Origin: an uncultured virus (IMG/VR IMGVR_UViG_3300045971_000981)
Lineage: Duplodnaviria > Heunggongvirae > Uroviricota > Caudoviricetes
Strand: one strand, 5' to 3'
Length of the DNA stretch: 64,000 nucleotides
Virus record (IMG/VR): IMGVR_UViG_3300045971_000981
Position 1 is the first letter of the stretch. Every line of letters begins with the position of its first letter. Both the position numbers and the translations under genes were made by a program. Positions 3,146 to 61,856 of the stretch are shown piece after piece. The notes beneath the pieces were generated by a model that had not been told where the DNA came from, did not search any database, and saw nothing but the letters and a program-made list of their open reading frames with translations.

Positions 3146-3229
3146 AGCCTTGCCGCATGAGGGTCTGGACTGGTTGGTATTCCAATATGGAGACTAGGGT
3201 TAACAACGGGAGTTACTGGTAGAAAAATC

Positions 3230-43558: not shown

Positions 43559-43774
43559 CTAAAGGTTTTTCAGTTTTCCTAGATACTTCAGGGAGTTGTC
43601 GTCCTGTTTGCGGTAGACACTCCAGTCCCCATACTCTCGCATCACGCGCTCACCTGCTCCCCATCCCTGCTCCCACACTGACGACTTGAAGGACGCGATC
43701 GCGTCCTTCAAGTCGTCCCCACGATCGCATTTGACTTGGGAGAACAGCGGGTCTATTAGAACGATTTCAAACAT
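43559..43774 (-). CDS. Small hypothetical protein
   Basis: ORF with RBS GGAGG. Confidence 0.5.
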   Translation of the reverse strand: MFEIVLIDPLFSQVKCDRGDDLKDAIASFKSSVWEQGWGAGERVMREYGDWSVYRKQDDNSLKYLGKLKNL

Positions 43775-43794
43775 TAAGCCTCCGACTCTGTGAG

Positions 43795-46700
43795 CTACAC
43801 ATCATCCCCGACCACGATTTCCTTCGCTGCTTCTTCCGCAGCGTTAACCCCCAAGTCCTTCTCCAGGCAGATCACCTGTTCTTCTAAAATTGTACGCTGA
43901 GAATAAAGATCGTGCAATCGCGCTTCTCTATCCACGATCAATCGCTGGGAGTTGTCAATCTCTGCCTGGACAGTGCGAATGCGCTCCTGAAAGCGATCGC
44001 GCTCAGTAAATGCCTCCTCCAGTGCCTTCTTCAGGCGATCCTCCGCCACAAACTTGGCAACATCTTGGATCAGCCTGACCTCATAACGTCCGTGGATAGC
44101 AATGCCATTTCCTGAGCGATGCGACTCATTATGAATCCTAGGAGAAATCAAGTGGAGCCTAAACAGGGAACCGCTACTTTGCTGGTAAGCTATGAGTCGG
44201 AACCCAGCGTAAGCCCCGATCTCCACGGCTTGCCCATGAGGACCTTCCTCAGCTATTTGGATGCGAATCTCATGGAGCTTCCGCACTGCTTCAACATAGG
44301 CTTCAGCATAGCCAGTGTAGACCTCATCCAAGATGGTTACCTGGAAGTTGTCACCGGAACAATGGGGTAGTGCCTGCTGGATAGGCTCTACGTCTTGCAT
44401 CACCAGATCTAGGTCAGCGATCGCCCCTCGCAGTTGGTACTGCTTGAATTCGCCGCTATCTCGCTGGAACGACCTCAACTCATTCCTGGTGGAAATAATC
44501 GAGTTGTCGCATACCTCTAGGTTCGTGCGGGCATTCACCAAGTCGATATAGCGAATATCCCCCGTGGCGATCGCCATCAGCGCAGCGTAGTTTGCCGCTG
44601 GGTTGCCATCTTCCGACTCGTTGTAGGTGCGAGTTCGCATATCTGGAGACAAGATGCTATTGCACATCTTCGCCTTGCGCGTCATGTGATCCAACATGAA
44701 GGCATCGAAGGAAATTGTCCCCCCAACCCCCGTGGTTAGATAGCGGAACAGCATGACCCGCTTGTGCTTGTTGCCGTACCGCTTCATCCGTCCATTGCCC
44801 TGCTTATCGATATCCGGTCGCCATTGCGGCTGAATACGATGCACGGCAAATAGCCTGTCCTGAATGTTCACCCCAATCCCGCCTTTGGAGGATGACGTAA
44901 TGAACACGGAAGCCTCCCCGCTCCGCATTTTCTGATGTTGGAGCGTTGTCTGCTCAGAAGTCTTAGCTTCCTGGGCGAACAAGATCTCGTGCTTGGGCAT
45001 CCCCATCGCCACCAGCTTGTCCCGGATGTCTCGGTAGAGATTGAACTGGGAGCCACCGTCGGTTCCTAAGTCTAGGAACACAGCTTGGGTTGCCCGCTCC
45101 ACGGCGATACCACGTCGCACTAACACACAGTCGCTAGTGCGGGTTGCCTTCCAGATCCGAAAGATCCGGCGTACAGCTTGGTTCAGCTTGCTCTTGGGGT
45201 GGTCAATCCCTAACGGGTCATAGAGTCGGTAGTCGAGCGCCCCCCATTGCCCGTGGGTTGAGATCAGCAGGTAATTGTCGTATTTCAGCTTTTGCTTCCC
45301 GGTTTCCGGGTCGATGACTGGGTTGCCCTTGTCGTCGAATGCCAGCCAGGTCTCTGGGCAGTTGCGCTGGAAATTCTCGGTTCGTTTCTGGATGTCCTTG
45401 ATCAGGGCGACCTGTGCGTCATGCATCTCTGCTTTGGCCACGTAGGTTTTCATTTCCGGCTCTGGTAGCCCAACTTCCGCCGCTGTGCGAATGTCGGCAA
45501 CATAGCGGAGCATAGCCTTCAACTCTGGGACGTTCTGCACATCCCGCAACCGCACCGTTGACTTCAGATCCCCCGTTGGTTTCACCTCCGCCGTTTGGCT
45601 GATCACCCCAAATTGGGCGATGAAGTCGTCGGCGTATTCCAGCAGCATGGAGATTGAATCCATGTGCAGGTTGCCCATGTCTCGTTTTGCCTGGGGCAAC
45701 CAGCCGTAAAGCCGCCGCAGGATCACAAGAATTTCGATGAAACTATTATTGATTGGCGTGGCAGTAGCCATGACGCAGCATTTCAGCCCGTAGGTGTCCA
45801 TTGCCCACGCCAGTTTCATGTCTAAGTCCAGAGCGATGTCGCTGTGGTCGCTGGGCAGACCAGCCACCTGTTTCAGCTTGGTATGGCACGGCGTTTTCTT
45901 GTAGCAATGCGCCTCATCCAAGATAAACAGCGGATTGGTGCAAATATCCTCCATGTAGATGGGTAGATCCCGCGCTGCCTCGCTGCGTTCAAGCAGGTCT
46001 AGGAAACGGTTCTTTTTGCGCTCTAGTTCCTTCAACTCACGGGTCGATTTCTTGGGCTTCCTAGCTCCAAAGTTCATGACTGCCAGTGCTCTTTCTGCTT
46101 CTGCAATATCCGCCTCCACCTCTGCCAGCAGATTGTCAACCATGCGCTTCACAGTGTCCGGGTGCAGACTGATCCGCTTGAACTGCTCATGGGACATGAT
46201 TACGAGATCGTAATTGCCCGTTGCCATTTGCGCCAGAAAAACAGGCGCATTTTCTGCGCTAAAGTCATCGTCTTTGGGCGAGAGGATCTGAATTCCGGGG
46301 TAGGCAGACTGGGCAAGGGAGACGGCATCGCCGATCGTGCTCTTCTGCACCACATAAATCGGGTTAACCGCCGGATTGATTTGACGAGACTTGATGGCGA
46401 TCGTGATACACGCGATCATCTTGCCCAAGCCCGTGTCCCAAGCTAGAAGGAAATTGTAGGGACAGGTCAGCGCCCCATAGATCCCGTTGAGTTGGTAGGG
46501 GCGAGACATGACCCGCTCTTGCCATAGTGTGTCCATCCCCGGCAGGGTTAGCCCGCTGCCATCCCATTCAGTAAGCCGCAGGTTATTGAACAGGCTGTTG
46601 TAGCGGGTAACTACCTCTTCTTCATAGCGTTCCTCTAGGAACGATCGGAACAGGTTACGTAACTCCGTCTGTTTCTGTCTGGCTGCTGCGGTGAGAGCAG

Positions 46701-47166
46701 CGTCTAGCAGTAATTGCCCGTCAATTTCACTACGGCGCTTGATCGTGGGCACTTCCAAGTTCAGCGCCATTTTTACCAGGTCGAACGCTGTCAGCATTTT
46801 CTGCTGAAAGTTGCCAGTGCTGGAGTAGGTGCCCCACATCAAGCCATATTCCTGGGTCACTTTTATCGTGTCCCTAGCCGACCTGACATCCAGATTCCAG
46901 AGGTTAGTGGGGCGATCGTACGTGCTCTTGACTGCGGCATCCAGCGCGTAATAGAAGAAATTGTCCAGCCAGTCGCAATCAATCCAGGGTTGCCCAAAAT
47001 TGATAGAGATCTCGCTGAACGACAATCGCTGCGGTAGCGCTGCTTCGAGTGCGGCTACGTTGACTGCAAAGGATGGGTCAGTTTCTGCTGCGGATTTCGC
47101 GGCAGCAAGTTTCGCCACTACGTCCCCAGAGGTGTAGCGATCGCGGGCAACAAGTGTTTGTGGCAT
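43795..47166 (-). CDS. SNF2/SF2 helicase, C-terminal part of a DarB-like methylase-helicase
   Basis: YTSGDVVAKL..NV.ALE..LP..L...EI...GQPWI, RPYQ, DTGLGKM, LDEAH, ATATPINNS, GIGVNIQDRL, QGNGR. Confidence 0.85.
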   Translation of the reverse strand: MPQTLVARDRYTSGDVVAKLAAAKSAAETDPSFAVNVAALEAALPQRLSFSEISINFGQPWIDCDWLDNFFYYALDAAVKSTYDRPTNLWNLDVRSARDTIKVTQEYGLMWGTYSSTGNFQQKMLTAFDLVKMALNLEVPTIKRRSEIDGQLLLDAALTAAARQKQTELRNLFRSFLEERYEEEVVTRYNSLFNNLRLTEWDGSGLTLPGMDTLWQERVMSRPYQLNGIYGALTCPYNFLLAWDTGLGKMIACITIAIKSRQINPAVNPIYVVQKSTIGDAVSLAQSAYPGIQILSPKDDDFSAENAPVFLAQMATGNYDLVIMSHEQFKRISLHPDTVKRMVDNLLAEVEADIAEAERALAVMNFGARKPKKSTRELKELERKKNRFLDLLERSEAARDLPIYMEDICTNPLFILDEAHCYKKTPCHTKLKQVAGLPSDHSDIALDLDMKLAWAMDTYGLKCCVMATATPINNSFIEILVILRRLYGWLPQAKRDMGNLHMDSISMLLEYADDFIAQFGVISQTAEVKPTGDLKSTVRLRDVQNVPELKAMLRYVADIRTAAEVGLPEPEMKTYVAKAEMHDAQVALIKDIQKRTENFQRNCPETWLAFDDKGNPVIDPETGKQKLKYDNYLLISTHGQWGALDYRLYDPLGIDHPKSKLNQAVRRIFRIWKATRTSDCVLVRRGIAVERATQAVFLDLGTDGGSQFNLYRDIRDKLVAMGMPKHEILFAQEAKTSEQTTLQHQKMRSGEASVFITSSSKGGIGVNIQDRLFAVHRIQPQWRPDIDKQGNGRMKRYGNKHKRVMLFRYLTTGVGGTISFDAFMLDHMTRKAKMCNSILSPDMRTRTYNESEDGNPAANYAALMAIATGDIRYIDLVNARTNLEVCDNSIISTRNELRSFQRDSGEFKQYQLRGAIADLDLVMQDVEPIQQALPHCSGDNFQVTILDEVYTGYAEAYVEAVRKLHEIRIQIAEEGPHGQAVEIGAYAGFRLIAYQQSSGSLFRLHLISPRIHNESHRSGNGIAIHGRYEVRLIQDVAKFVAEDRLKKALEEAFTERDRFQERIRTVQAEIDNSQRLIVDREARLHDLYSQRTILEEQVICLEKDLGVNAAEEAAKEIVVGDDV

Positions 47167-47344
47167 GGTTCTGTTTTTAGTAGGATGGCTGAAGAATTTA
47201 GTTCAGACTGGCTAAGCCTTTTTTGGAAGCACAATCGCTCACGCAGCGCAAGCTAGCTCATCATCGAACAAGCTGTTGATGGAAGGAATGTCGATTTGAT
47301 TGGGCATGGACGCTTCGCTCCAGTAAATTCGTGGATCTGTGATT

Positions 47345-47551
47345 TCAGTCTTCATGGGCAACTTCAACAAATACATCATCGCCTTCAAATTTATAAGGAA
47401 CCAGGATGTATCCTGCATCTAGCATTTCTTCCATTGTTTCGTCGTCGCATTTGTAAAATGCTTCACATGCATGATTACCGAATTGATCACAAACCCATAG
47501 CAAACCATCGTCATCTTTTTCGATTGTTGTTCCTTCAAAATTGTTAAGCAT
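47345..47551 (-). CDS. Small acidic protein
   Basis: ORF with RBS GGAG. Confidence 0.5.
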   Translation of the reverse strand: MLNNFEGTTIEKDDDGLLWVCDQFGNHACEAFYKCDDETMEEMLDAGYILVPYKFEGDDVFVEVAHED

Positions 47552-47640
47552 ATTAACTCCTGTAGGGCTTAGTTAGGTTCATGATTCAACTGTATCGGCA
47601 TGGAATTCTAGATCGTGTACGTTCTCCGATTCTAACACGA

Positions 47641-49203
47641 TCATTCTGGCTCAACAAACGCTAGACCGTGTTGCACAAGCAACTCAGCAGCACAATCTGG
47701 GGTGATGCCAAACCAAGCCCCGATCGCATCCAAGTTAATCTCACCGTAGGAACTGATAGAGCGCTGCAATGCCGCTTGCAGGGTTTCCGCGTCGGCTTCC
47801 TCGTAGCACTTGGTCAGCGCTGGCAGGATTGGGTAGTGAACACGATCGCGGAAGATTACCGCCAGTTTCCCATCCCGATCCAGTGCCTTAAGCTGGTTGA
47901 ACCGCGCATCAAAAATGTTGCCGATTTTGAGATGATCGACCGTCTGGGAAATAAATCCCCACTCGATCGTGTAGGCACGGTAGAGAGCATTGAGCCTAAC
48001 CCGTTTCGCCTCGATCTCAGCATCTAGAGCACTAGGGTCGCGCTCTAGCTCGATCTGCCGTTGCAGGCAATCGTGCAACCGAATCAGCCAACCAATCAGC
48101 GATCGCTGCTCATAGGTGACAGTCACAGGGTAAAACAGCCCTGGCTGAATCGTGAACCGCTCTGTTTTAGAGAGGACGATCGGCACTGCCTTCTTTAACC
48201 CACGGGTGCTTAGTCCCAGCACCCCATCCAATTCACCGTAGCAAAAGGGATAGCCCTCGGTCTCGCGCAGTTCGTCTCCCCGCAACAAACGAGGCTCACC
48301 AATAAGTGCGATCTTTTCCCGCTTAAGGGCTTTCCTGTGTGCTGGTTCAGAGGCTGGGGGTGCGGAGTGTGGAGTTGGGGGTGCTAAGGTGACAGGCTCA
48401 CTGACGATCTCCTCTTGTTCAGCCTCCAGTCCCGGCTCCGGCTCAATTTCTGGCTCACAGGCGATCGCCCCTGACTCGGTTTCTTGCTGCTCAAGTTGTC
48501 GCCCAATTATCAGCAGGGAAGCTGTCACCACGATCATCGTACCCAGTCTGATGGCAAACAAGTTCCAGGAATAGGGATTCTCAGCCCGCAGTTTGGCGAA
48601 TTCTAGGCTAGCCGCGATCGCCGCTTGCCTCCGCCCGTCACGTTCCAGTTCCTCTTGGGTTGCCGCAAGCAAGTTGTCCATCCAATCAAAGATGCTGGGC
48701 TGGATGTAGCTGGATTTTGGCTTAGACGATTTCGCGCTACCGATCGGCACTACATTCGATTCGGTCCTGGGTGTTGGCTTGGGCACTGACTTCGGCACTG
48801 ACGAAGTAGCAGCCTTTCGCTTTCCACCACCCCCCTTGCGACGGGTAGTAGCGGTCTGCGAAGTCTCTGGCAGATCGTTCATGTTCACGGCGGGGAGTAA
48901 GCTTGTGTCCCCATATTGTCGCGTGAAATCAACGATCGCGCTCCACGCTTCTTGGCTCTGCCTGCACCACCAGCGCGGGTCATCGTTGGTGCGACTGAAA
49001 ATCAGCGTCTTGCCAATAAACTTGCAGATTTGTTCGGGTGGGCTAACTGGGAATCGAATCTCAAACCCATTCAGAGATTGATTGACAGATACGCGAAAAT
49101 CGCGCCAGTCGGTAGACGGTGCGAGTGTTGCCATGATATTTACCCTCGTTATTTCAAAGGATTGTGATTTCGTAATATCGTCCCTGGTCATCCTCGTCGC
49201 CAA
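47641..49203 (-). CDS. Protein whose C-terminus matches the DarB-like middle region
   Basis: LQRQIELE...KRVRLNALY.AY..EWG..S...LKALD...IFRDRV...AL..S...G.INL...LAFVEP; start may be 49134. Confidence 0.65.
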   Translation of the reverse strand: MATRMTRDDITKSQSFEITRVNIMATLAPSTDWRDFRVSVNQSLNGFEIRFPVSPPEQICKFIGKTLIFSRTNDDPRWWCRQSQEAWSAIVDFTRQYGDTSLLPAVNMNDLPETSQTATTRRKGGGGKRKAATSSVPKSVPKPTPRTESNVVPIGSAKSSKPKSSYIQPSIFDWMDNLLAATQEELERDGRRQAAIAASLEFAKLRAENPYSWNLFAIRLGTMIVVTASLLIIGRQLEQQETESGAIACEPEIEPEPGLEAEQEEIVSEPVTLAPPTPHSAPPASEPAHRKALKREKIALIGEPRLLRGDELRETEGYPFCYGELDGVLGLSTRGLKKAVPIVLSKTERFTIQPGLFYPVTVTYEQRSLIGWLIRLHDCLQRQIELERDPSALDAEIEAKRVRLNALYRAYTIEWGFISQTVDHLKIGNIFDARFNQLKALDRDGKLAVIFRDRVHYPILPALTKCYEEADAETLQAALQRSISSYGEINLDAIGAWFGITPDCAAELLVQHGLAFVEPE

Positions 49204-49329
49204 CTATGTTTAGTAGCCCGCGATCTCTGAGTCTGCAAAGTTCTTGCAGCAGCGTCTCAGCACCTTTACCTTTGGGATGATAGATTGTTTTTGGGCTGGA
49301 CAGAACCAGCCCGATCTCCTCAGTGATGG

Positions 49330-49554
49330 TCATGCCGTATCAACTCGTCGTTCCTCCATGTAATCCTCAAACTCTGGGCATTCCTCAACATCAAGCCCGA
49401 ACAGTTCTTGGTATAGCTGCTTAGCGTTGTCACGAATTAGCTCGAATCCGCCATCATGAAAATCACCATCGCCGTTCAACGCCATGTTTGCGTCCGTAAA
49501 AATATTGGCGATAAACTCGCGTAACTGCTCTGCTTGCTCTGTGGTTAGGTGCAT
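49330..49554 (-). CDS. Small acidic protein
   Basis: ORF. Confidence 0.45.
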   Translation of the reverse strand: MHLTTEQAEQLREFIANIFTDANMALNGDGDFHDGGFELIRDNAKQLYQELFGLDVEECPEFEDYMEERRVDTA

Positions 49555-49793
49555 AAAGGTTGACCATCAACAAGGATGGGTTGACGTGTTTCGATCCAGA
49601 CTTTCGCTCCACAGCTCAATGGCTTCTCTGGACTGTAGATAACCGTGGCGACTACATTCCCCTCATCATCAAGAATATCGACTCTATTACCATATTGGTT
49701 AGACTTGCCAGATTTGACGGTAATGACTGGCAGTGCTGCACCTTTAATGTTGGCACGTATATTGTGCTGATTGACGTGAATTCTTGCTAACAT
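49545..49793 (-). CDS. Phage-type hypothetical protein
   Basis: RIHVNQHNIR.N...PVITVK...YSPEKPLSCGAKVWIET motif recalled from phages. Confidence 0.65.
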   Translation of the reverse strand: MLARIHVNQHNIRANIKGAALPVITVKSGKSNQYGNRVDILDDEGNVVATVIYSPEKPLSCGAKVWIETRQPILVDGQPLCT

Positions 49794-50052
49794 TTCGACT
49801 TCTCCTTATGGTTCGTTAATCCCCATCAGCGGATGCAGTTTATAGTTCGTCTCCTGTTGATTTTTCGTCGTGGAAACACCACGGTAGGCTCTGGGCTGCA
49901 TGGGCGATCGGCAGTGCTCTACCCGTGGCAACGATCGCCCAGTAGCGAACAAACATCTTGGCGATCGTTAGCCTTGATTCATGGTCTTGGCAGGAAAGGA
50001 ATCCTGCGAGAATTACGCGGATTGTATTGTCCAAAACGAAATCCTGCCGTGT

Positions 50053-50781
50053 TTAGGTTGCTAAAGATTCATGCCGACGGAAAAATCGGCTATGGCGCGA
50101 TCGTAGCCCATCAAACTCTTCATTCTTGAACCTCTCGTCAGAGAACAACCCGATCGGCGGGTCTGTGGTCACTATCTTGCACGTCCCGTATTGGTATGAG
50201 AACGAATCGTAGCTGGCTGTGACGTGCATCATCACGAGATACTTGCCCAGCCTAACCGCAGACCTAGCCAGGTTGTGGGTCGCATAAGGACCAAGCAGTA
50301 ACTCATGGCGAAAGCTGTCACCCACTGGCTTAAGAACAGAAACATAATAATGCCAGTCTGGCTGGCTGTAGCCCGTCTCCGGGAACCTGCCCGCGTCCCG
50401 CTTAGCGCGAAACTCATGCAGCCGATCGTCCCAAATTTGCTCATGCCTGCGATTTCTGTGGCAATCTGCTTTGAGATATCGCGCAGCATGGTACACCGAA
50501 ACCTTTTTCTGAAAGCGATCGTGCAGTCGCTCAATCACACACATCTCGTAGGGTAGGAATGCGATTACCTGCCAGTCTCTACGGATTTCCTTGTCGCCAT
50601 CATAGAACCGTAGGCGATCGCCCAGTTTCACGCCATGATCCGAACTGATATGCTGTCGTGCTATAAATTCAAACATAGCTCTCCTAGTCTGCCCAAGGGT
50701 CGTTTCCTTGGTTGATATACTCCGCCACTTTCTCCATCCAGGTATTGATAGAAGGCTCACTGCTAACCGGACAGTGAACAT
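50053..50781 (-). CDS. Hypothetical protein (likely start about 50675)
   Basis: ORF. Confidence 0.5.
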   Translation of the reverse strand: MFTVRLAVSLLSIPGWRKWRSISTKETTLGQTRRAMFEFIARQHISSDHGVKLGDRLRFYDGDKEIRRDWQVIAFLPYEMCVIERLHDRFQKKVSVYHAARYLKADCHRNRRHEQIWDDRLHEFRAKRDAGRFPETGYSQPDWHYYVSVLKPVGDSFRHELLLGPYATHNLARSAVRLGKYLVMMHVTASYDSFSYQYGTCKIVTTDPPIGLFSDERFKNEEFDGLRSRHSRFFRRHESLAT

Positions 50782-51016
50782 AGAGAGGGTCTTTCCTTAC
50801 TATGTTGCCGTCCCAATCTTTTAGCGCACAATTCAGCGGTCTAATCTTTGTGCCTTCTACCTGCTGGACAATGACTGTCCACCAACTCGCGTCCCTATGC
50901 TGCAACAAGCAATAGATGTTATTGCCTTGAACTGTTTCGTAGTAAATAAAATCGTTGTCTTTGCCATAGGTGAATTGAACACCTTTGACGACAAGTGTTT
51001 TGCCTATTTTGGGCAT
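50684..51016 (-). CDS. Hypothetical protein
   Basis: ORF with RBS GGAGG. Confidence 0.55.
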   Translation of the reverse strand: MPKIGKTLVVKGVQFTYGKDNDFIYYETVQGNNIYCLLQHRDASWWTVIVQQVEGTKIRPLNCALKDWDGNIVRKDPLYVHCPVSSEPSINTWMEKVAEYINQGNDPWAD

Positions 51017-51027
51017 AGTGCCTCCGT

Positions 51028-51456
51028 CTATAAGGTGTATTCCAGCGATCTGATCCAGGCTTCGCGGCTCTCGATAATCAGCGGTGGTCTAAGGGTCAGC
51101 ATCGGGTGAATTACCTGCGCCTCGCAAAAGCCGATCGCGGTTCGTAAATCATCCCTGAGAAAAACGACCTGATTCCATCGCAGGAGCTTCCGTCCGTCTG
51201 GTGCGGTAGGCGCAGCTTCCTCCCAGTAATTCAGGAGTATGAGGCTGTCCGTGCTGACAACCTCGCTAAAATCGATTTGCAGAACATTCTGATGGCTGCG
51301 GCTCCATTCGTCTTGAATCGTGCCGTAAACAGTAGACGCAACCTCTAGTGTCACCACTCCCCCAGCAACATGCTTGATTGCATATTTCTCTAAGAGGGTG
51401 TAGTTATACAGGGTCAAGAACTGAGCTTCGTTCGTTGTGATTGGTAGCATCTCCAT
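51028..51456 (-). CDS. Hypothetical protein
   Basis: ORF. Confidence 0.55.
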   Translation of the reverse strand: MEMLPITTNEAQFLTLYNYTLLEKYAIKHVAGGVVTLEVASTVYGTIQDEWSRSHQNVLQIDFSEVVSTDSLILLNYWEEAAPTAPDGRKLLRWNQVVFLRDDLRTAIGFCEAQVIHPMLTLRPPLIIESREAWIRSLEYTL

Positions 51457-51545
51457 TAGTTATCCACCTCGCCGAAGAACTGTTCCATAGCATTAATCAT
51501 TGTCCTATTCCACTCCTTCAAGTTGGTTAACTTGCAAACATACGA

Positions 51546-52361
51546 CTATTTCTCCTGCTGGTTCTCTTTTTCTTGCTCCAGAAGGCACAGTGCCCAGACC
51601 GCATCTTCGATCAGCCCGATTCCCCGCTTCGATGAAAACGCAGACTTGTCGCCACCAAATTTCTCGCTCAACACATGATGGATGCAAAAATCGGCAAACC
51701 GTTTAATACTCAGAGCTTCATCCGCTCGGTTAGGAATCACCCACCGCCCCACAGCGGTACTAGCGCGAACCTGAGCCATCCGTGCCGTGATACGCCCAAA
51801 GACTTCTTGGGAGAGGTCTTCTCCTGTGCTCCGGCTAGATTTAACAACCTCAGAGACTAGAAGCAGTGGCTTCAGAACATTAGTCCGCTCTGGGTTGTAT
51901 TTCTTGGCAGGGCGATAAAACTCCCTAATCATCTGGGTGAGTTGCTGGGGGATGGCGATGTGAGACGGATGCCTAGCAACTGCGGTCAAGGACGCTTCTT
52001 CAGCTACAATCATCTCGCAGTCTAGCTTGGCGAGTCCGATCGCATCCATCGGGGTCATGCCTGATTCTTCCAAATCCTTCCGCCATTCATCAGCAGATTT
52101 AATCTGTTGGCGGATGACAGCCTCTTGATGCTCCTCGAATCGAGAGTATTTGAGCGCTATTCGATCTGATTCGTCTGGATGCGGAGAAGGATGCTGCCCT
52201 GTCCAATCCCATAACAGCACGTCAAACACAAGCTGGAAATTATCAGCGTTGGGAACTACTGCATTAATCAACATGGCTACGTCAGCCACGCAGTCCTCGA
52301 AAGACTTCTCTTCGTTCATTGATGCAGCAAACTTATCTCTTATCTCTTGAAGGGTGGTCAT
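51546..52361 (-). CDS. Fusion: unknown N-domain plus type I-D Cas10d C-terminal (Cas11d small subunit)-like domain
   Basis: LT..IREFYR..KKYNP....VLKP...GEDL...M..V.ASTA.GRWVI.NR..E...I..FA.F....V...FGGD...LI.D....L..LE.EKE matches recalled cyanobacterial Cas10d C-termini. Confidence 0.75.
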   Translation of the reverse strand: MTTLQEIRDKFAASMNEEKSFEDCVADVAMLINAVVPNADNFQLVFDVLLWDWTGQHPSPHPDESDRIALKYSRFEEHQEAVIRQQIKSADEWRKDLEESGMTPMDAIGLAKLDCEMIVAEEASLTAVARHPSHIAIPQQLTQMIREFYRPAKKYNPERTNVLKPLLLVSEVVKSSRSTGEDLSQEVFGRITARMAQVRASTAVGRWVIPNRADEALSIKRFADFCIHHVLSEKFGGDKSAFSSKRGIGLIEDAVWALCLLEQEKENQQEK

Positions 52362-52490
52362 TGTTTTCTCCTTAGCTGGGGTAACATCTACCAGCCCCTT
52401 ACAGGGATTATGTAGCCGCGATCGTGGCAGGTTGTGCAGCCCATCTTCCCGCTAGCGGTATTCGCCCCTGCCACGATTGGATTATATCAT

Positions 52491-53054
52491 CTATTCAGGA
52501 GTGAGGTCTTTTAGGTAACTATTCATCACGATAATGTCGTAATGTTCCTGTGGCATGAGCTTGCAGCTTCCGGTCGAGACGACAATATCACCCTGGTTGA
52601 AAGTCACTTCATCTTCCAAGTCTTCGTTGTCGTCAGGGTCTTCGTACCAGTCCTTGGCGATCGCCTCCATCACGTCGAACGGATCCTGCCCTGGTTCACA
52701 ACGGAAAACAAAGCCGATCGTGTACTCGCCTCCACCTCTGTCCTCATGCATTTGCCCAAAGTAGTACCAGGTCAGAGTCCTGTCTGGCATGTAGCGACGA
52801 AGCACGTCATAGTCATGCTCTGAGATGGGCTGAAAAGATCCAGCCAGAATATCGACTTCACGATCGTTCTCGTCGTTAGGAAAATGTTCTTCGTACTCTT
52901 CCAGATACTCATTCAGGTACACGGCAGCGATCTTATTGAGTATGTCCTCTGGCTGTTTCCCTGAAGAGTCAGAGAAAACAATTTTTATCGTATCTTCAGT
53001 CCTGCCGTTCAGCTCTTTATGGAGTGTCGCGGAATAGTAAGATCTAGATTGCAT
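52491..53054 (-). CDS. Acidic protein with two internal repeats
   Basis: Two similar halves (IA..Y...EHDYDVL and IAKDWY...EHYDII); ATG at 53054 with GGAGG. Confidence 0.6.
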   Translation of the reverse strand: MQSRSYYSATLHKELNGRTEDTIKIVFSDSSGKQPEDILNKIAAVYLNEYLEEYEEHFPNDENDREVDILAGSFQPISEHDYDVLRRYMPDRTLTWYYFGQMHEDRGGGEYTIGFVFRCEPGQDPFDVMEAIAKDWYEDPDDNEDLEDEVTFNQGDIVVSTGSCKLMPQEHYDIIVMNSYLKDLTPE

Positions 53055-53070
53055 GGTAATCCTCCAAAGT

Positions 53071-54183
53071 TCAAATTCTAAACAACCGATCGCGCACCGT
53101 ATCAAACAGCGTATCCGTATCCCCAGTCCAGTTCAGCGCAAACTTGTCACCAGTCAGCTTGTCCAAGCAGGCATCCCCAACCATCTGATCTGGGTGATCC
53201 TGAAAATAACGATTGATTTTCACAGGGGAGCCAGTCTTCCCTGTAACTTCGTGCCACTCATCAACGTTGATCCAGTTGGGCTGGTCATTACTCCGGCTTT
53301 CTCGCTTTCGCAACACCAACAAATCAGTACAGACCTCCGTGCCAGAGATTTCCCTGAAAGTCTGCATGGGCAGTCTCACCGCACCTAGCAGATCGACTTG
53401 AAGGGCAAGGAACGCTCTCCAGCGAGTGTTGGATTCGTTCGCGCCCACACTGTCCAGGGTAGAAGTCGAAGTAATCAGCACTGCCATGGCACCTGGCTTA
53501 AGCAACTGCATGGTCTGATAGATAGCACTGGCATGAAGCCCCACCTTGATATTGACTTTGCTTGTAACCTTGCGCTTCACACCATCCTCGAAGGGGACGT
53601 TGCCCACGGCTAGGTCAAAGTAATTCTCTGGCAGTTGCGGCTCCAGGATGGAGCGGTGGAACCAGTTATCGGTTGGGTGTAGCAGGCTGGCAACTCGTAG
53701 GCTGGTCGGTTCAATGTCTACACCAGAAATACAGGTGGTTTTCTGAAGGGATCTAGGCATGAACAGGGCAAACTGCCCCATTGCACACCCAGGCTCAATC
53801 ACGTTGCCTTGCCAGAAGCCCTTGTGAACTGCATAGTCCCAGATGATTTGAATCAATCTAGGATCAGTCTGGTGCTGGTTCAAGACAACCGACCTAGCTG
53901 CATTGAAAGCGCTGAAACCAAGAGCCTTCTCAAGCTCTTCTCGTAGTTCCTGTTCTGAGTTTGACTGGGGGTTGATCAGCTTGGGTCCGATCGCACCGAA
54001 GCCAGGAAACTTTGTCAGCGCTCTCAGATTCTCAGGGTCGGCGTGGTCTTTGCTGAGAGCATAAACCGCATCAACACAATCGCGGAATCGCTGCAACGGC
54101 TTCCGGGTTAGCAAGTGATCGATGTATGCTTCCCATGCAGTTTCGTCCGGGAATGCTGGGTGGAAAAGATTGCTGTAGTTCAT
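53071..54183 (-). CDS. DNA methyltransferase, N-terminal part of a DarB-like protein
   Basis: FPGFGA...ARSVVLNQHQT, VIEPGCAMGQF, FDLAVGNVPF, LLGAVRLP...GTEVCTDLLVLRKR, INRYF..HP..M.G. Confidence 0.85.
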   Translation of the reverse strand: MNYSNLFHPAFPDETAWEAYIDHLLTRKPLQRFRDCVDAVYALSKDHADPENLRALTKFPGFGAIGPKLINPQSNSEQELREELEKALGFSAFNAARSVVLNQHQTDPRLIQIIWDYAVHKGFWQGNVIEPGCAMGQFALFMPRSLQKTTCISGVDIEPTSLRVASLLHPTDNWFHRSILEPQLPENYFDLAVGNVPFEDGVKRKVTSKVNIKVGLHASAIYQTMQLLKPGAMAVLITSTSTLDSVGANESNTRWRAFLALQVDLLGAVRLPMQTFREISGTEVCTDLLVLRKRESRSNDQPNWINVDEWHEVTGKTGSPVKINRYFQDHPDQMVGDACLDKLTGDKFALNWTGDTDTLFDTVRDRLFRI

Positions 54184-54199
54184 GGTTACCGCTGTTTTT

Positions 54200-54835
54200 C
54201 TATTTCGTCATCTCAAGCTCAACGATCGGAGTCCATCCCGCAGGGGCGATCGTCACCTCGTAGGGAATCTCAAACTCAATACCAAATAGCTTGGCTCGGC
54301 GATCTCCACCGTAATGAACGACCTTGACTGTCTCTCGGCTTATTTCCGGGAAATCTTGCTGGGCAACCTCAAACAGTCGATCGAACTTAGATAACGACGA
54401 TCCATAGTTTTTCTCCAGCACAACGCCGATCGCGGCATCTGTGTACGCTGGATTGCTACTGTTCTGCCTGGTTAGGCGAATTTCTTTGATCATAACCTGC
54501 TCCTTGCACATGATTAGATTGTTCAGTTCCTCCAAGTTTTCCAACAGCGCCAACAACTCAGATTCTTCCGCTTCTGCCCTAGCGATCGCATCCTTAGCAA
54601 GAACAGGTCTGAATTCGGTTGCAGCAAGTATTAGTTCATTCAGCCACGCAGCAGCTTTAAGGGCACTACTCTTTGTGCAAAGAATCGCCCCATCAACGAA
54701 CTTTTTCCCATCCTTGTCTTGACTGACAGATACCTTCCGGAGTACCCAGCCCTCTTCGCTCAATGCGTTTTTACCAGGAACCATCGTCTCGTTATTCTGG
54801 GTCGCAACAACCCAAGTCTTGAGTCTATTACTCAT
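54200..54835 (-). CDS. Hypothetical; probably two fused cassettes (second start at 54493)
   Basis: Internal AAGGAG-N6-ATG and a repeated upstream motif. Confidence 0.5.
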   Translation of the reverse strand: MSNRLKTWVVATQNNETMVPGKNALSEEGWVLRKVSVSQDKDGKKFVDGAILCTKSSALKAAAWLNELILAATEFRPVLAKDAIARAEAEESELLALLENLEELNNLIMCKEQVMIKEIRLTRQNSSNPAYTDAAIGVVLEKNYGSSLSKFDRLFEVAQQDFPEISRETVKVVHYGGDRRAKLFGIEFEIPYEVTIAPAGWTPIVELEMTK

Positions 54836-55093
54836 GATTTCCCTCTGCACATGATTAGATTATTTAGTCCATTTTACTCGATCGACTTCCCCCTAGCCTG
54901 AGCAACAGTCCCCCGCACCGAAACTATGTCATTGACGATCTCCACTCGCACCCGCCCCGTCAACGCCTGCCCAGTCCTGATCAACACAGTCAATCGATTC
55001 ATTGCCTCAGAACGATTCAGGCAGGGGGGTTCGTCCCTAATTTCAGGACTACTTTCCCCCACCCGATACCACACGAAATATCGAGTTCGCATC

Positions 55094-56695
55094 TTAATAC
55101 CCAGTATTCGCCGAGGGCAAATCTGCCCATGCTTGTTCAAGCCTGCTGAACTTTGCCGCTTCCACCACTGCCAGTGGCTTCTTTTTACTGGCTACTGCCA
55201 ACAGCCCATCCAATTCCAGGATGCGACCTTGGCTTTTAGCAGAGATCGCCGCACCCTTGACGATCGCTGCCAACTCTGCCCCAGAGAACAGATGAGTTGC
55301 GATCGCCAGTTCGCCTGCAAATTGCTGAGCCTTTCCACGATCAAGCCTTTTGGCTAGATGCAACTCCAGAATCTCAGCCCTGCCCAGTTCATCGGGCAAG
55401 TCAATCCTGAATATCTCATCGAACCTTCCAGCCCGCAGGAATTCAGAGGGTAACGCAGAGATGTCGTTCGCGGTCGCTACCAGGAACACAGGCTCCGCAC
55501 AGTCGTTCATCCAAGTCAGGAATTGCCCGAACACCCGTCTGGTTGTGCCACCATCATTATCCCCGGCACCCCCAAACATCTTCTCCACCTCGTCGATCCA
55601 TAGCACACAAGGCGCTGACGCTTCGACTAGCGCAAAGATATGAGCTGTCTTGCTCTCAGAACCACCGACGTATTTGTCCAGGAAAGCGCTGGGCTGCAAC
55701 TGGATAACTGGGCAGCCCAGAATCTCTCCAGCCGTTTTCGCTAACAAACTCTTGCCCGTGCCAGGATGCCCAGTCAGAAGGATGCCCCTTGGTCGATCGT
55801 CCCCAGCCTCTTTGGTCAGCAAGGACGATCGCTCGGTTAGCCACTGGCGCAGGTAAGTGATCCCTCCTAATTCCACATCTGGTTCTGATGCGACCAACAG
55901 CCCAGATTGCTTCAGCCGCTCAACTTTGGCATCGTGCAATGCCGCGATCGTGCTCTCGCCCAGTTCACTGTGGGCAGAAATTGCCTCACGAACGACAGAA
56001 CCTATCTGCCGAACAGATGGAAGCCCTTGCGCTGCTCGTACCAACCGCGCCCAGAACTCTGGAGTGTCGGTGTACCGGAACGCTCCCGATTCCCGCCGTC
56101 GATTGGGTAGGTCAACAACCGCCCTGATATGTTGCCCAATCTCCTCGCCTGTGGGGGGCAGAATTTTGATAACCTCAACCCGCCCATTGAGTTCTGGGGG
56201 AATCTCCAGGTTTTCACCAACGAGAATGATCCGCCGTGCCTGTGTGATCCGGCTGGTGGCTAACTCGTCGATCGTCGTCTTCAGAACTCTCTGACGGGCA
56301 AAAGTCGCTGCCGGATCGCCCGTTGCCCCGTTGATATACTTGTGGGCATCGAGCAACACGAAGATGCCACTGTCTCGCTCTTGTCCTGAGTCCCGACGTA
56401 TGCTGTCTTGAGAGCGAATCAGCCCCAGGAATTTATCAGGTGTATTTTGCAGGTAGGTCTCGTCTGTGAAGCTATCAGCCCTGAAGCCGATCTCACCTCG
56501 ATTGCTTGTCGTCACTGCCCGCAAACCGTCAGTCACGTCCCAGACGAAAACATGGGGAATATGGCTGGCTGGGCTGGTGAGGGTGGCAATTCCCTCTAGG
56601 ATTCTAAGTTCCTCACAGGAGGGGCAGTCGATCGCCACTGCCACGCCAGAATTTAACTTGTGAGCGATCTGCTCAAAAATGCTAGTTGTCGTCAT
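55094..56695 (-). CDS. Ycf46-like AAA+ ATPase
   Basis: PRGILLTGHPGTGKSLLAK, YVGGSE, APCVLWIDEVEK, FLTWM, ATAN...EFLRAGRFDEIF..LP, FSGAEL. Confidence 0.9.
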   Translation of the reverse strand: MTTTSIFEQIAHKLNSGVAVAIDCPSCEELRILEGIATLTSPASHIPHVFVWDVTDGLRAVTTSNRGEIGFRADSFTDETYLQNTPDKFLGLIRSQDSIRRDSGQERDSGIFVLLDAHKYINGATGDPAATFARQRVLKTTIDELATSRITQARRIILVGENLEIPPELNGRVEVIKILPPTGEEIGQHIRAVVDLPNRRRESGAFRYTDTPEFWARLVRAAQGLPSVRQIGSVVREAISAHSELGESTIAALHDAKVERLKQSGLLVASEPDVELGGITYLRQWLTERSSLLTKEAGDDRPRGILLTGHPGTGKSLLAKTAGEILGCPVIQLQPSAFLDKYVGGSESKTAHIFALVEASAPCVLWIDEVEKMFGGAGDNDGGTTRRVFGQFLTWMNDCAEPVFLVATANDISALPSEFLRAGRFDEIFRIDLPDELGRAEILELHLAKRLDRGKAQQFAGELAIATHLFSGAELAAIVKGAAISAKSQGRILELDGLLAVASKKKPLAVVEAAKFSRLEQAWADLPSANTGY

Positions 56696-57188
56696 GGCTG
56701 ATCTCCCAGTATCGTAGTCCCAGTTTCTTGTTCCAGTCAGCAACGATCGCCGATCGCTCCGGCTCAGGCAAAACATCCATAGTGAAATCATCGAGCAAGT
56801 CTGCGATCGTTACGTCAGCCGCATCCAGCACCGCTTGCTGCTCAGGTGTGCAGAGATACTTGTTGAAGGCTCTAGAAACAACTTCGCAATCATGATCAGA
56901 GAAGCCCTGGAACATTGTTGTCGATAGCATTTCCCACACCTGTTGTGGGATGTCAACGGTTGGTGTTCCCTGGATCATGGCATCAATCTCTTTTCTGCAA
57001 CCTCGATAGTGCTCTGTGATCACGATCGGATGAGAATGCGCCGCTTCCGCTTCCGTCACCCGCACCGACAATCTCCAAGGCTCTTTTTCAGCGTAGTCCA
57101 GCGCAATTTCAGCCGCTTGCATACCATCCTTAGCTTCGATAATCATGGTCAGGCAGACTGTGAAACACTTGCTCTGTTCTTCAGTCAT
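56682..57188 (-). CDS. Hypothetical protein
   Basis: ORF, coupled on both sides. Confidence 0.55.
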   Translation of the reverse strand: MTEEQSKCFTVCLTMIIEAKDGMQAAEIALDYAEKEPWRLSVRVTEAEAAHSHPIVITEHYRGCRKEIDAMIQGTPTVDIPQQVWEMLSTTMFQGFSDHDCEVVSRAFNKYLCTPEQQAVLDAADVTIADLLDDFTMDVLPEPERSAIVADWNKKLGLRYWEISHDDN

Positions 57189-57763
57189 GGTGAAGTTTCT
57201 CCCTTGATAACTTCTACACCCTTGGCTTCCAGAGCTAGAATCTCTGGTGAATCAGGGGCGATCGGATTGTTGCGGATGTAAAGGTGCTTCAGCTTCGGCA
57301 GTTCCAGGATTGAACTAGGAAGGCTGGTAATATTGTTCCTGGTTATATCTAGCGCGATCAGGCTGGTTAATTGTCCAATCTCGTCAGGCAGGCAATCTAA
57401 TCGGTTATCAAAAGCGCTCAAGTCTTTCAGCTTGGTTAGGTTTCCGATCGATCCTGGAAGCTGAGTGAGTTGGTTATGGCTGACGCTAAGCATGGTCAGA
57501 TTCTTCAGCGCTCCGATCTGCTCTGGAAGCCGAGCAAACTGGTTCCAGGAAATATGTAACTCTTCGAGGCTTGTGAAGTCGCTAATCCATTCCGGCAGCG
57601 TAGTCAGCTTGTTGTCAGAGATGGACATCTCTCGCAAGTTCTTCAGTAGCTGGATGCTAGCCGGGAGGCTAGTGATCTCAGACCCCATCAAATTCAATTC
57701 CCTAGTCTTCTTGGCGCTCAGAAGTCTGCGCTCAATTACATCATTCATGCTCATCACGCTCAT
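57185..57763 (-). CDS. Leucine-rich repeat protein
   Basis: About 7 LxxLxLxxNxLxxLPxxIGxL 23-aa repeats. Confidence 0.95.
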   Translation of the reverse strand: MSVMSMNDVIERRLLSAKKTRELNLMGSEITSLPASIQLLKNLREMSISDNKLTTLPEWISDFTSLEELHISWNQFARLPEQIGALKNLTMLSVSHNQLTQLPGSIGNLTKLKDLSAFDNRLDCLPDEIGQLTSLIALDITRNNITSLPSSILELPKLKHLYIRNNPIAPDSPEILALEAKGVEVIKGETSP

Positions 57764-57990
57764 GCCGTCACCGTCCCCTTCTGAGTCGTAACCACGACTT
57801 CTTCATTCGCCACCTGATGAAACTCAGGTTTCAGCGTCAACCCAGTCTGATCACCCAGCAGTGCCCGAACTTCTGCGGTTTTACCCAGGCAAGCGCTGCC
57901 CTGCATTCCATGTGCCTCTACCTTGACCGTCAGGTCAGGGTAGATCGCTACTTCAATGTATTCGTCCACGATCACAATCTCCAATTTCAA
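57760..57990 (-). CDS. DUF2997-family protein
   Basis: I.PD.TVKVEAHGMQGSACL..T....ALLG.....LKPEF. Confidence 0.8.
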   Translation of the reverse strand: MKLEIVIVDEYIEVAIYPDLTVKVEAHGMQGSACLGKTAEVRALLGDQTGLTLKPEFHQVANEEVVVTTQKGTVTA

Positions 57991-58041
57991 AAACGACTAG
58001 CTAGTGTACTTCGGCTGTGACGAAGTACAATCTCACAGACT

Positions 58042-58461
58042 TCACGCCAAAACTTTATCCCGAATCTGGAACCGAACAGCGCCATCGCCACTAGCAGGCA
58101 CTTCCACGACTTCCTTCTCGGAACCAAGCTCCCTGGTAAGCAGTGCAATCTGGTACTGTTTGACCAATTCCTGGGGAAAGTTCGGAATCCTGATGCCAGA
58201 GAACCCGTCATCCATGAGCATGTCGTATTCTTTGGTCTCGGAATTCCACAGGAAACCAAGATCAGGTTGGGCTGTGGGTGCAATATCCTTCGCCCGTACC
58301 ACGATGTTCGCCATATTGTCACTAGAACCGTCGCGGTACCAGCCCTGAATCTTGACCGGATTCATGTGAACTTCTGGTAAAACATTGAATAGCTTCTCCA
58401 ATGCGGCAATCAGAGCCGCACGATCGGTCAACTTAGCCTTAATCGTTGCAAAATGGGACAT
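58042..58461 (-). CDS. DUF1257 (Ycf35-like) protein
   Basis: MSHFATIKAKLTDR.ALIAAL...DLGFLWN...YDMLMD...L.KQY. Confidence 0.85.
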   Translation of the reverse strand: MSHFATIKAKLTDRAALIAALEKLFNVLPEVHMNPVKIQGWYRDGSSDNMANIVVRAKDIAPTAQPDLGFLWNSETKEYDMLMDDGFSGIRIPNFPQELVKQYQIALLTRELGSEKEVVEVPASGDGAVRFQIRDKVLA

Positions 58462-58484
58462 AAAAACTCCTTAAAAACTGGAAC

Positions 58485-59528
58485 CTAAGCAATCCGTCGA
58501 TACGTCACACCCTCATCATCACCCTTGGCGTATGTCTCCTGCCTGAAATTCAGGCTCAAGTACTCCATCAACTGATCTCGCATCGTTCCCACCTGGTCAA
58601 TGAGCCGATTGGCATTAAATTCCAAGTCACGCGAGACCAAATCAATTTTTTCCGCCAACTTATCTGCCCGTTCAGCGGTATTCGCCACGTAACCGCCAGT
58701 GGTTTTAGTGGCTTCCATCATTTCAGCCGCTTGTGTTAGCAGATCCTCTACTTCTGCGTTCATTTGCTCGATCGCAGGCTGCCTGAAATCCTCGATCGAC
58801 ATCATCATCTGCGGCAGCATCGTCACGTTTCCACCAGAAATCTCGCTAACAACAGCTTTCAGCGCTTCTAGCTGTGTTCGATGCACTTCCGGGATGTAAT
58901 ACAGTCCGCCTGAATCCGTCTGAGCAACAATTCCGCAGACTTTCACGAAATTCTTGATCAGCCCGCGCATTTCTTCAGCGGTCATCTGCTGAAATTCTTG
59001 ATACTTATCAATCAACTGCTGGATAGCAGGATGCCAACAGGAATAGTGGAACTCATGGGTGTTCTTGTTCCACCGCACCTGCGAAATCGTTGGGCAATCG
59101 GCATCGGTGCCCTGTTCGTTTGCCCGCCATTCCTTCAGAACCAGATTGACGCAAGGGTCTGTGTCAGCAGTCTCTGTCTCGGAAACTTTACCCCAGAACC
59201 ACCCGTCCTTTTGACGCTGTGCCTTACTGCGATTAACAGCACCGAAAGCCTTCGTGAAAAACTGCTTCGGGCGAAGTTGAGCGGGTAGAAATTCTTCTCG
59301 CAGCCCATTCACGGTCGCAGATACCTCCAAGTCTGCGTAATCGAAGCGTGTTTGGGATGGGACTGTCCAGTAAACCAGGAACCCGATCGTCCTTGCCCCT
59401 AACTTCTGCTGAATCCGAACAGACTCTCTCATCTGTTCAAACCCACTCTTAGCGGTGTGCCTGCTACCAGTCATGGAGCCGCTCTCCACAACATCGCTCA
59501 CAACTCTCGCGCCTAAATCTAAAGTCAT
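58485..59528 (-). CDS. Hypothetical protein (DUF3150/DUF6744-like, C-terminal coiled coil)
   Basis: GFLVYW...SGGLYYIP... Confidence 0.55.
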   Translation of the reverse strand: MTLDLGARVVSDVVESGSMTGSRHTAKSGFEQMRESVRIQQKLGARTIGFLVYWTVPSQTRFDYADLEVSATVNGLREEFLPAQLRPKQFFTKAFGAVNRSKAQRQKDGWFWGKVSETETADTDPCVNLVLKEWRANEQGTDADCPTISQVRWNKNTHEFHYSCWHPAIQQLIDKYQEFQQMTAEEMRGLIKNFVKVCGIVAQTDSGGLYYIPEVHRTQLEALKAVVSEISGGNVTMLPQMMMSIEDFRQPAIEQMNAEVEDLLTQAAEMMEATKTTGGYVANTAERADKLAEKIDLVSRDLEFNANRLIDQVGTMRDQLMEYLSLNFRQETYAKGDDEGVTYRRIA

Positions 59529-59653
59529 CGTTTCCTCCTTGGGATGAAAAATCCCTGAACGATTAGACTATTTCCTCTATTCCAGGATATTCCATAAAAT
59601 CCATTGATGCAAGAGAAATCCACGTCTATTTTTCAGGGAGTGTTTACCTGTCG

Positions 59654-61250: not shown

Positions 61251-61853
61251 TCATCTCCAGTAAGGCTCTGAATATAGGTAGGTAGCACCCTCGATCGCGC
61301 CTGGGTTATCCTGTGCGAACACTGTCCACACCACGCCATCGGTCACCTCACGCCGATAGCTGAGCGGATAAAGGCGAAGGATCGTAGCACGGGCATGACC
61401 TTCCCTCATTTCCCTCGTCGTTACATAATAGAAGTGGCGATCGCACCCATCTAGAAGAGGTTCGTAGAGAGGTCGGTCAGTGATCACGATCGCGTCCTCA
61501 CCGTAGCATTTAAGTTCGCTGTGGGCTGGTACAATCCGAGTTGGGAAAATACCATCAGTCGAACGCAAGTCCTTGCCTGTCGTCATATCTATTGCTGTGG
61601 TCATTCTGTACGATCGTGATGAAAACAGCAAATAGTTGACTCCTAGCGGTGACTGAATAACCCCTTCTTGACGTGTCAGGGTTTCTAGCTCCCAATGTTC
61701 TACAGTTTTGATTCCAGGGTGGAATGTCTGCAACAAGCAGCCTTCCCACCAATCATCGCTTAGCATATCTTCCAGGAATTCTTGGTATCGTCGTGCGGTC
61801 TCCCACGCCATCTCACCCGTTACTTGTCTGAATGGAGTGATATTGATTGGCAT
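61251..61853 (-). CDS. Hypothetical protein, tandem paralogue A
   Basis: Shares TPFRQVT, TVEHW, TDRPLYEPLLDG, LYPLSY, TYLYSEPYWR with the next gene. Confidence 0.75.
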   Translation of the reverse strand: MPINITPFRQVTGEMAWETARRYQEFLEDMLSDDWWEGCLLQTFHPGIKTVEHWELETLTRQEGVIQSPLGVNYLLFSSRSYRMTTAIDMTTGKDLRSTDGIFPTRIVPAHSELKCYGEDAIVITDRPLYEPLLDGCDRHFYYVTTREMREGHARATILRLYPLSYRREVTDGVVWTVFAQDNPGAIEGATYLYSEPYWR

Positions 61854-61856
61854 TGC

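Follow-up and report, generated by a model that had tools for sequence, protein, structure and literature searches.

A gene on the minus strand of a cyanophage sequence encodes a two-domain protein whose C-terminal half is a true Cas11d domain, and the protein is probably an anti-CRISPR, evolved from Cas11d, that acts against the type I-D system of the cyanobacterial host. The sequence, referred to here as the window, is the whole 64,000-nucleotide (64-kb) stretch of DNA that was analysed. The open reading frame has the position, strand and length given in the first-pass annotation of the window, and the residues cited there are all present. It comprises the following parts:

51546-52361, minus strand: 271-aa open reading frame, an acidic helical N-domain joined to a Cas11d-like domain (candidate type I-D anti-CRISPR)
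51546-51965, minus strand: Cas11d-like domain, residues ~133-271
51966-52361, minus strand: N-domain, residues 1-132, six helices, net charge -14, with helix 39-54 predicted to dock

Homology to Cas11d was evident from both sequence and structure. Residues 117-245 aligned with positions 806-931 of the 946-position Cas10d model TIGR03174 (E=3.8e-11); the score falls short of the whole-protein cut-off, which a fragment would not be expected to reach. A profile built from the 16-sequence family and searched against 177,635 PDB sequences matched Cas11d (7sba_J, E=1.8e-5) and also the tail of Cas10d (7sba_I, E=8.9e-4); the single 271-aa sequence, used as query without a profile, gave no PDB match. 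All significant matches of the family were to Cas10d/Cas11d. The AF2 model of the 271-aa protein (mean pLDDT 84.5, pTM 0.57) aligned with 7sba_J in VIA-align at Z 16.9 and an rmsd of 2.3 Å over 135 residues, followed by 7sbb_I (Z 16.2), the archaeal Cas10d 6thh_C (Z 8.8) and the first non-Cas entry (Z 8.2). Cas11d homology of the C-terminal part had been proposed in the first-pass annotation from the residues alone, and is borne out by the profile comparison and by Foldseek, in which 7sba_J, 7sbb_I and 7sba_I were the top three matches. The domain retains the motifs of host Cas11d, including R-x-F-Y-R in helix 1, K-P, G-R-W and the C-terminal helix, as well as a basic charge (+3.9 versus +2.2 in hosts), and is ~34% identical to the nearest host Cas11d. 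By sequence and fold, residues ~133-268 are thus confirmed as a true Cas11d domain. The whole AF2 model had no match in BFVD, and no homologue of the 271-aa protein was found among 50,697 annotated phages.

The protein is nevertheless not a canonical Cas11d, as two defining features are absent. Its domain has the Cas11d signature and six-helix fold of the canonical subunit (7SBA_J; 10.1101/2020.04.18.045682, PMC9123187), which it resembles in fold and conserved motifs. However, canonical Cas11d is nested in cas10d and translated internally within the full-length gene, whereas the window gene is a separate, stand-alone 271-aa frame with its own ribosome-binding site and promoter motif, an N-terminal fusion and no cas operon; an operon with cas7d, cas5d, cas6d and cas3' is absent from the 64-kb window and from the 207,855-bp record of a related phage (L070). 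The earlier description of a stand-alone Cas11d therefore holds for the gene, which lies apart from any cas operon, but not for the product, which is a fusion rather than a bare Cas11d. Production of bare Cas11 by internal translation of the orphan gene was considered and rejected, since no start codon (ATG, GTG or TTG) just ahead of the Cas11 domain is conserved in 15 family genes.

The N-domain, modelled alone, was predicted with confidence (pLDDT 89.8) and is acidic across the family (mean net charge -9.8). No family was found for it in Pfam or PHROG, its comparison with PDB sequences returned nothing under E=0.1, its fold search gave no clear match (best VIA Z 6.2; Foldseek E>0.4), and its atlas matches were all under 0.9. 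Similarly, N-domain profiles did not match Cas10d, Cas7d, Cas5d, Cas6, Cas4 or the protein's own Cas11 domain, and a weak search of 7,999 scored candidates recovered no longer protein bearing the N-domain. These blank searches do not show that the fold is new. The domain occurs in one of 401 genomes of the order to which a Chroococcidiopsis genome bin (G001) belongs.

A possible role for the N-domain came from complex prediction with the full 271-aa protein and residues 760-1109 of a cyanobacterial Cas10d (L060). The median ipSAE was 0.64 (runs of 0.84, 0.64 and 0.00) against 0.00 for the best of three controls, passing a mark that is reached by 116 of 157 solved complexes and by 2 of 215 mismatched pairs; contact agreement between runs was at least 0% and partner pLDDT at least 72. 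Confident contacts joined N-domain residues 3-8, 35-65 and 86-105 (core 41-52) to residues 988-1051 of the host Cas11 domain, and the host side of the predicted interface includes a helix that is nearly invariant among hosts. The Cas11d half made no confident contact in this model, which covers the pair with the Cas10d tail only. As the host Cas10d chain was poorly folded in the prediction (pLDDT 43-49, no alignment), part of its surface may have been artificially exposed, and conservation at the predicted N-domain interface is no higher than elsewhere in the domain (0.50 versus 0.54). Since the interface runs via the N-domain, for which no solved look-alike was found, the prediction is less likely to be a recall of a solved Cascade. 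The modelling lends support to a possible binding of the N-domain to the Cas11 domain of host Cas10d. The N-domain may be the active part of the protein and the Cas11d half a docking module. The extension seen in the first-pass annotation is present and may do more than add bulk, being the predicted Cas11d-binding half; variants consisting of the N-domain only exist in the family.

The proposed course of events would begin with phage acquisition of the Cas11d-encoding 3' end of cas10d and its fusion to a novel acidic helical domain. The protein would be made upon infection from its own promoter, and its Cas11d half would occupy the small-subunit position in the belly of host Cascade, in the manner of plasmid-supplied Cas11d, with the N-domain gripping the adjacent host Cas11 domain (either free Cas11d or the Cas10d tail). 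The minor filament would in this way be capped or locked, which would leave the R-loop unstabilised or prevent the activating shift, at the cost of dsDNA binding or of nuclease activation. Published work has shown that Cascade fails to bind dsDNA when Cas11d is missing and takes up Cas11d that is provided in trans (10.1101/2020.04.18.045682), and that the Cas11d subunits move by ~5 Å upon PAM recognition (PMC9123187).

The closest known parallel is AcrIB4 from Listeria, which has 38% identity to the last 90 residues of Cas8b, corresponding to the type I-B Cas11 region, and inhibits type I-B upstream of DNA binding with assembly not blocked (10.1101/2023.06.24.545427); its mechanism was left unsettled in that work for lack of a functional tagged allele. 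AcrIB4 has been proposed to replace Cas11 (10.1101/2025.06.06.658234; PMC13131331). Both are mobile-element genes homologous to the Cas11 part of a large subunit, located off cas loci and forming their own clade, but AcrIB4 targets type I-B and is ~9 kDa (PMC13131331), whereas the window protein is a 271-aa, Cas10d/Cas11d-derived cyanophage protein with an additional acidic N-domain. The features that AcrIB3 and AcrIB4 share as a kind, namely homology to a Cascade subunit, a mobile-element site off cas operons and a diverged clade of their own, are present here, and on the best reading the window protein is a candidate for working like AcrIB4. The first-pass annotation had proposed a decoy anti-CRISPR and knew of none described for Cas11d; the decoy stands as the best explanation, with circumstantial support from the self-match in locus L005, the separate clade and the purifying selection set out below, but the N-domain may itself be active and AcrIB4, as a homologue of the Cas8b tail (Cas11b), provides a precedent for type I-B. 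For type I-D the claim holds within the literature searched, from which most subscription journals were beyond reach, as no orphan Cas11d or Cas11d-derived Acr was found there. Table S3 of 10.1101/2023.06.24.545427, which covers 358 orphan viral cas genes, could list family members.

Other inhibitors resemble the window protein in part. AcrID1 from the archaeal virus SIRV3, the only type I-D inhibitor found in the literature searched, binds Cas10d at the face along which the non-target strand is guided (PMC9123187); it is likewise viral, directed at type I-D and acts on Cas10d, but is not described as a Cas homologue, and no match to it appeared in the PDB sequence and fold searches of the window protein. 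AcrIE8.1 (PMC12883894) binds a Cas11 subunit, as the N-domain is predicted to do, but is a small stand-alone protein that targets type I-E, and no similarity to it emerged in the searches. If the proposed role is true, the window protein would be the first bacterial type I-D anti-CRISPR within the literature searched and a second, independent co-option of Cas11 after AcrIB4. The family would in addition bear on what a 2024 review calls the enigma that Cas proteins are apparently not broadly recruited as inhibitors (PMC11656645).

The surroundings of the gene are those of a cyanophage. The window encodes a MuF-like minor head protein, an endolysin-like C39 peptidase, DnaB, a replication initiator, an RNA ligase and MazG, and for two of its large genes the only matches in the annotated phage set are to cyanophages (Nodularia, Aphanizomenon and others). 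The cyanobacterial HIP1 octamer occurs in 38 copies across the 64 kb. No capsid, portal or terminase gene was recognised within the window, which is therefore either a cyanophage fragment or a phage-plasmid. A contig of 27,810 bp, perhaps from the source sample itself, spans 43688-59600 with zero differences, and misassembly of the gene region is unlikely. The first-pass annotation had reported no other cas gene or array, and this held in every search made: none was found among the 55-81 window ORFs with Pfam, PHROG and NCBIfam, a six-frame search with custom Cas7d/5d/6/4 and C-terminal Cas10d profiles detected no cas gene, and the 64-kb window contains no CRISPR array. The source contig is listed at 71,577 bp, and ~7.6 kb of it may lie beyond the window. 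The orphan cas11d gene sits in a long minus-strand run, between the methyltransferase and helicase parts of a DarB-like anti-restriction gene:

53071-54183, minus strand: methyltransferase (N-terminal) part of the split DarB-like gene, matching phrog_10089 positions 1606-1894 (E=2e-62)
47641-49203, minus strand: middle part of the split gene (weak match, E=5e-4)
43795-47166, minus strand: helicase part of the split gene (E=5e-128)

The DarB-like gene thus extends across 43795-54183 as three ORFs with ~nine small genes inserted, and is split alike in locus L001, where the order of methyltransferase, orphan cas11d and helicase is identical. Elsewhere in the family, ArdA and DUF932 genes (L003) and an ArdC gene (L069) are neighbours, giving four loci with such genes when the split DarB of the window and L001 is included, and consistent with the anti-defence-type surroundings previously described for the window gene. 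Other family loci lie among structural genes, and surroundings vary from locus to locus. No known acr or aca neighbour was recognised at the scanned loci.

This placement bears on an alternative in which the protein has a different job, either inhibiting another defence (a non-CRISPR system, or a different CRISPR type that has a Cas11-like subunit) or acting as a nucleic-acid-binding partner of the split DarB-like proteins. The gene lies between DarB-like pieces at two loci, the identity of its Cas11 domain to the nearest host Cas11d is ~34%, and the Chroococcidiopsis bin, the only genome bin with a carrier, was searched for Cas10d, Cas7d, Cas5d, Cas6 and Cas3' and yielded none of these type I-D genes, although incompleteness of the bin or wrong binning of the phage contig could account for this. 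In addition, Cas homologues can inhibit other CRISPR types, as exemplified by AcrVIA2, a Cas3 homologue that inhibits type VI. However, the DarB link is missing at the remaining scanned loci, type I-D repeats lie beside the gene in L005 and L070, and the predicted partner is a type I-D Cas11 domain, which together leave this alternative unlikely.

The link to type I-D is most direct in locus L005, a phage-like contig with a three-repeat type I-D mini-array (17-198) ~1 kb upstream of the orphan gene. The repeats are 37 nt long, and two of 301 genomes have arrays next to cas10d from which their 3' 24-mer differs by 1-2 mismatches. One spacer matches the junction between the two domains in the orphan gene of this very contig: 34 of 35 nt agree, the mismatch falls at crRNA position 15 and the PAM is GTG. 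The spacer also matches 11 further fetched loci, with 1-5 mismatches and in each case a GTG PAM; the second spacer has no match among the fetched loci. The array occupies one end of a metagenomic contig of 2,951 bp that holds no cas gene, and may be an assembly consensus. Tolerated self-targeting is a classic sign of an inhibitor, and the carrier of the L005 array appears, from its sequence, to tolerate it. As the PAM of type I-D is GTN (PMC9123187), the spacer match with a GTN-type PAM indicates that a type I-D system has sampled the orphan gene. Among 511 host type I-D spacers from 18 arrays, none matched family-bearing phages. In L070, the minus strand at ~12810-12920 carries a solitary type I-D repeat, then a spacer-like stretch and then a terminator-like hairpin; of 21,265 GTN sites, the best target of this guide is a GTT-PAM site ~70 nt upstream, making the element a candidate crRNA-like autoregulatory RNA in a phage.

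The leader of the window gene contains the following elements:

52368-52373, minus strand: ribosome-binding site AAGGAG, 6 nt ahead of the ATG, read from the sequence itself
52388-52413, minus strand: degenerate element that resembles type I-D repeats in their 3' hairpin half and has a changed 5' handle
52421-52477, no strand assigned: 11-bp inverted repeat in the leader, with arms at 52421-52431 and 52467-52477
52481-52489, minus strand: perfect extended -10 motif TGnTATAAT, 128 nt upstream of the ATG

The -10 motif is unique across both strands of the 64-kb window; it is missing from a sigma-70 scan that does not score extended -10 sites lacking a -35 box. The leader as a whole is no more stable than its shuffles (z -0.68). 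The repeat-like hairpin lies 51 nt ahead of the ATG, an offset identical in L003, and, scored against 17 distinct host type I-D repeats, 52388-52413 is the best site of the window at 18.8 bits, a score equalled in 2 of 20 shuffled windows. Repeat-like leaders occurred in 2 of 17 family genes versus 1 of 395 controls (Fisher p=0.005, a post hoc comparison in which both carriers are related genes). The element lacks the conserved GAAAC end, and its likeness to a type I-D repeat is suggestive only of mimicry; an operator palindrome is an alternative explanation for it, and palindromes of a similar kind overlap promoters in L010, L014 and L016. Racr solitary repeat units (PMC10651486), RNA elements of phages that resemble repeats and frequently neighbour acr genes, are comparable, but the window element is a degenerate hairpin half in a 5' leader with no such end. 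The possibility that the leader of the window gene or of L003 contains a crRNA-like guide was rejected because no target was found, the best match of the window's guide candidate being 13 of 20 positions, which is background level. The GC-rich repeated leader hairpins of L010 and L011 were treated as unrelated to type I-D repeats; they have 12 nt in common with a published type I-D repeat, on the antisense strand only, and precede many genes. Palindromic operator-like sites over strong promoter motifs were observed at L010:8461-8534, L010:9565-9629, L014:896-933 and in the L016 leader, upstream of the gene-bearing cassettes; no regulator was identified for them. An HTH-like ORF upstream of the gene in L005, L011 and L012 had no significant Pfam match.

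Repeats and guides beside the gene could also mean that the phage re-tools the host system, supplying a modified subunit, and sometimes guides, that turns host Cascade on rival phages or into a non-cutting repressor. The match of the L005 spacer to the gene in 11 other loci, the solitary repeat and nearby target in L070, and the retention of conserved motifs and basic charge in the Cas11 domain all agree with such a use. However, full type I-D repeats are present at only these two of the scanned phage loci, the repeat-like element of the window has no matching target, and the near-perfect self-match in L005 would be easier to survive with an inhibitor, so that re-tooling appears quite unlikely.

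The preferred reading, an inhibitor of host type I-D, fits the distribution of Cas11d domains in cyanobacteria and phages. A Cas11d-domain match was present in 65 of 401 sampled cyanobacterial genomes, from which type I-D can be considered common in these hosts, and at 72 places in all. Of these places, 67 are Cas10d frames of 955-1174 aa, three are broken cas10d genes within I-D loci and one is at a contig edge. The remaining place is the only fusion form in the 401 genomes and lies on a phage contig (L003), which identifies the fusion as a phage gene rather than a chromosomal one within the searched set. This contig, NZ_JBOFLP010000155.1 (G001:C155), is a 126-kb phage genome in the Chroococcidiopsis bin, with capsid, terminase, DNA polymerase and ribonucleotide reductase genes.

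The close family comprises 16 proteins of 268-282 aa that are 48-57% identical, and a deep search returned 96 clusters that include N-fusions, C-fusions, bare divergent forms of ~130-150 aa, N-only proteins and true Cas10d. Among the 26 related loci fetched, some of them duplicates and most on short contigs, the family is on phage contigs wherever hallmarks are visible: L003 has capsid, tape measure and terminase genes, L010 has capsid and tape measure genes around the gene, L006, L011 and L069 have tail or baseplate genes, the L001 record has a portal, and L070 belongs to a 97%-complete IMG/VR record (G403). Searches of the L070 record and of the 126-kb L003 contig for Cas7d, Cas5d, Cas6 and Cas3' found none. 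The family's plasmid matches are four ordinary cas10d genes. Direct repeats of 29-49 nt flank the gene in L001, L010 and L014 in the manner of a mobile cassette. In L023 (2069-2476) and L024 (1381-1779), two sequence variants, the same deletion removes the Cas11 domain and leaves the N-domain in a cassette that is otherwise intact, and P0040, P0041 and P0047 are N-domain-only proteins. A further set (P0033, P0044, P0048, P0052, P0054 and P0089) joins a Cas11d-like domain to a C-terminal domain that is probably beta-rich by its pattern and has no Pfam or atlas match. Viral scans with the C-fusion and bare forms P0044, P0050 and P0042 found nothing, and the cluster names of such forms carry a single 'Csc3' label and nothing else.

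A quick tree built from 127 Cas11 domains places 35 N-fusions, 6 C-fusions and 15 short forms on one side of a branch (SH-aLRT 99), and this orphan side adjoins the cyanobacterial lineage of ~1,100-aa Cas10d; the nearest host forms are cyanobacterial Cas10d proteins of ~1,100-1,170 aa. The split between orphan forms and host Cas10d recurs in a thinned tree of 71 rows, whose short rows were picked using the first tree. The trees rest on 144 columns with long branches, are unrooted (midpoint root) and omit rows covering <95 profile positions; a single old capture followed by domain shuffling may lie behind the split. Sequence comparison also indicates that the family is under purifying selection in both domains, with dN/dS of 0.15-0.31 in 21 of 23 pairs with unsaturated dS, the 21 pairs being non-independent members of one subclade; the two exceptions are near-identical pairs at 0.58 and 0.96 (L014/L016). 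For the window gene against all relatives, synonymous sites are saturated (pS 0.79-0.89; pN 0.32-0.37). It is very improbable that the gene is the small subunit of a phage-encoded type I-D system lying beyond the available sequence, or the decaying remains of a cas10d captured earlier, as might be suggested by the part of the source contig perhaps unseen, the short contigs of most relatives and the Cas11-domain deletion in L023/L024, because the 97%-complete phage and the 126-kb phage contig lack cas7d/5d/6/3', the frame is intact and under purifying selection across the diverged homologues, and true remnants differ in being broken frames within I-D loci.

An extended version of the preferred reading would combine these observations, with cyanophages having made Cas11d into a radiation of type I-D inhibitors (bare, C-domain and N-domain forms), the N-fusion being two-headed, with one half a subunit mimic and the N-domain clamping the neighbouring Cas11d, and the leader being a type I-D repeat mimic cut by host Cas6d that makes inhibitor output, or an RNA decoy, depend on whether the attacked system is present; taken as a whole, this combination is speculative and rather unlikely. 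With a two-domain protein, natural domain-deletion variants and a solved target complex, 'subunit poisoning at Cas11' is directly testable, and the protein could provide an off-switch for type I-D genome editing and type I-D transposon tools.

The window also contains other features of interest. A PAS-GGDEF-EAL gene for c-di-GMP turnover is present at 14512-16470, with a homologue on the G403 phage, and a cluster of AAA ATPase, DUF2997, DUF1257 and DUF6744 genes occupies the minus strand at 55094-59528. Within this region, a leucine-rich-repeat protein is encoded at 57185-57763, and low-depth contigs of run X2 differ from the window at 57283-57594 by 13 changes, all of them G>A. Tandem paralogous small genes with repeated starts occur at 1-1390 (three copies), 2471-3745 (two copies) and 61251-62417 (two copies).
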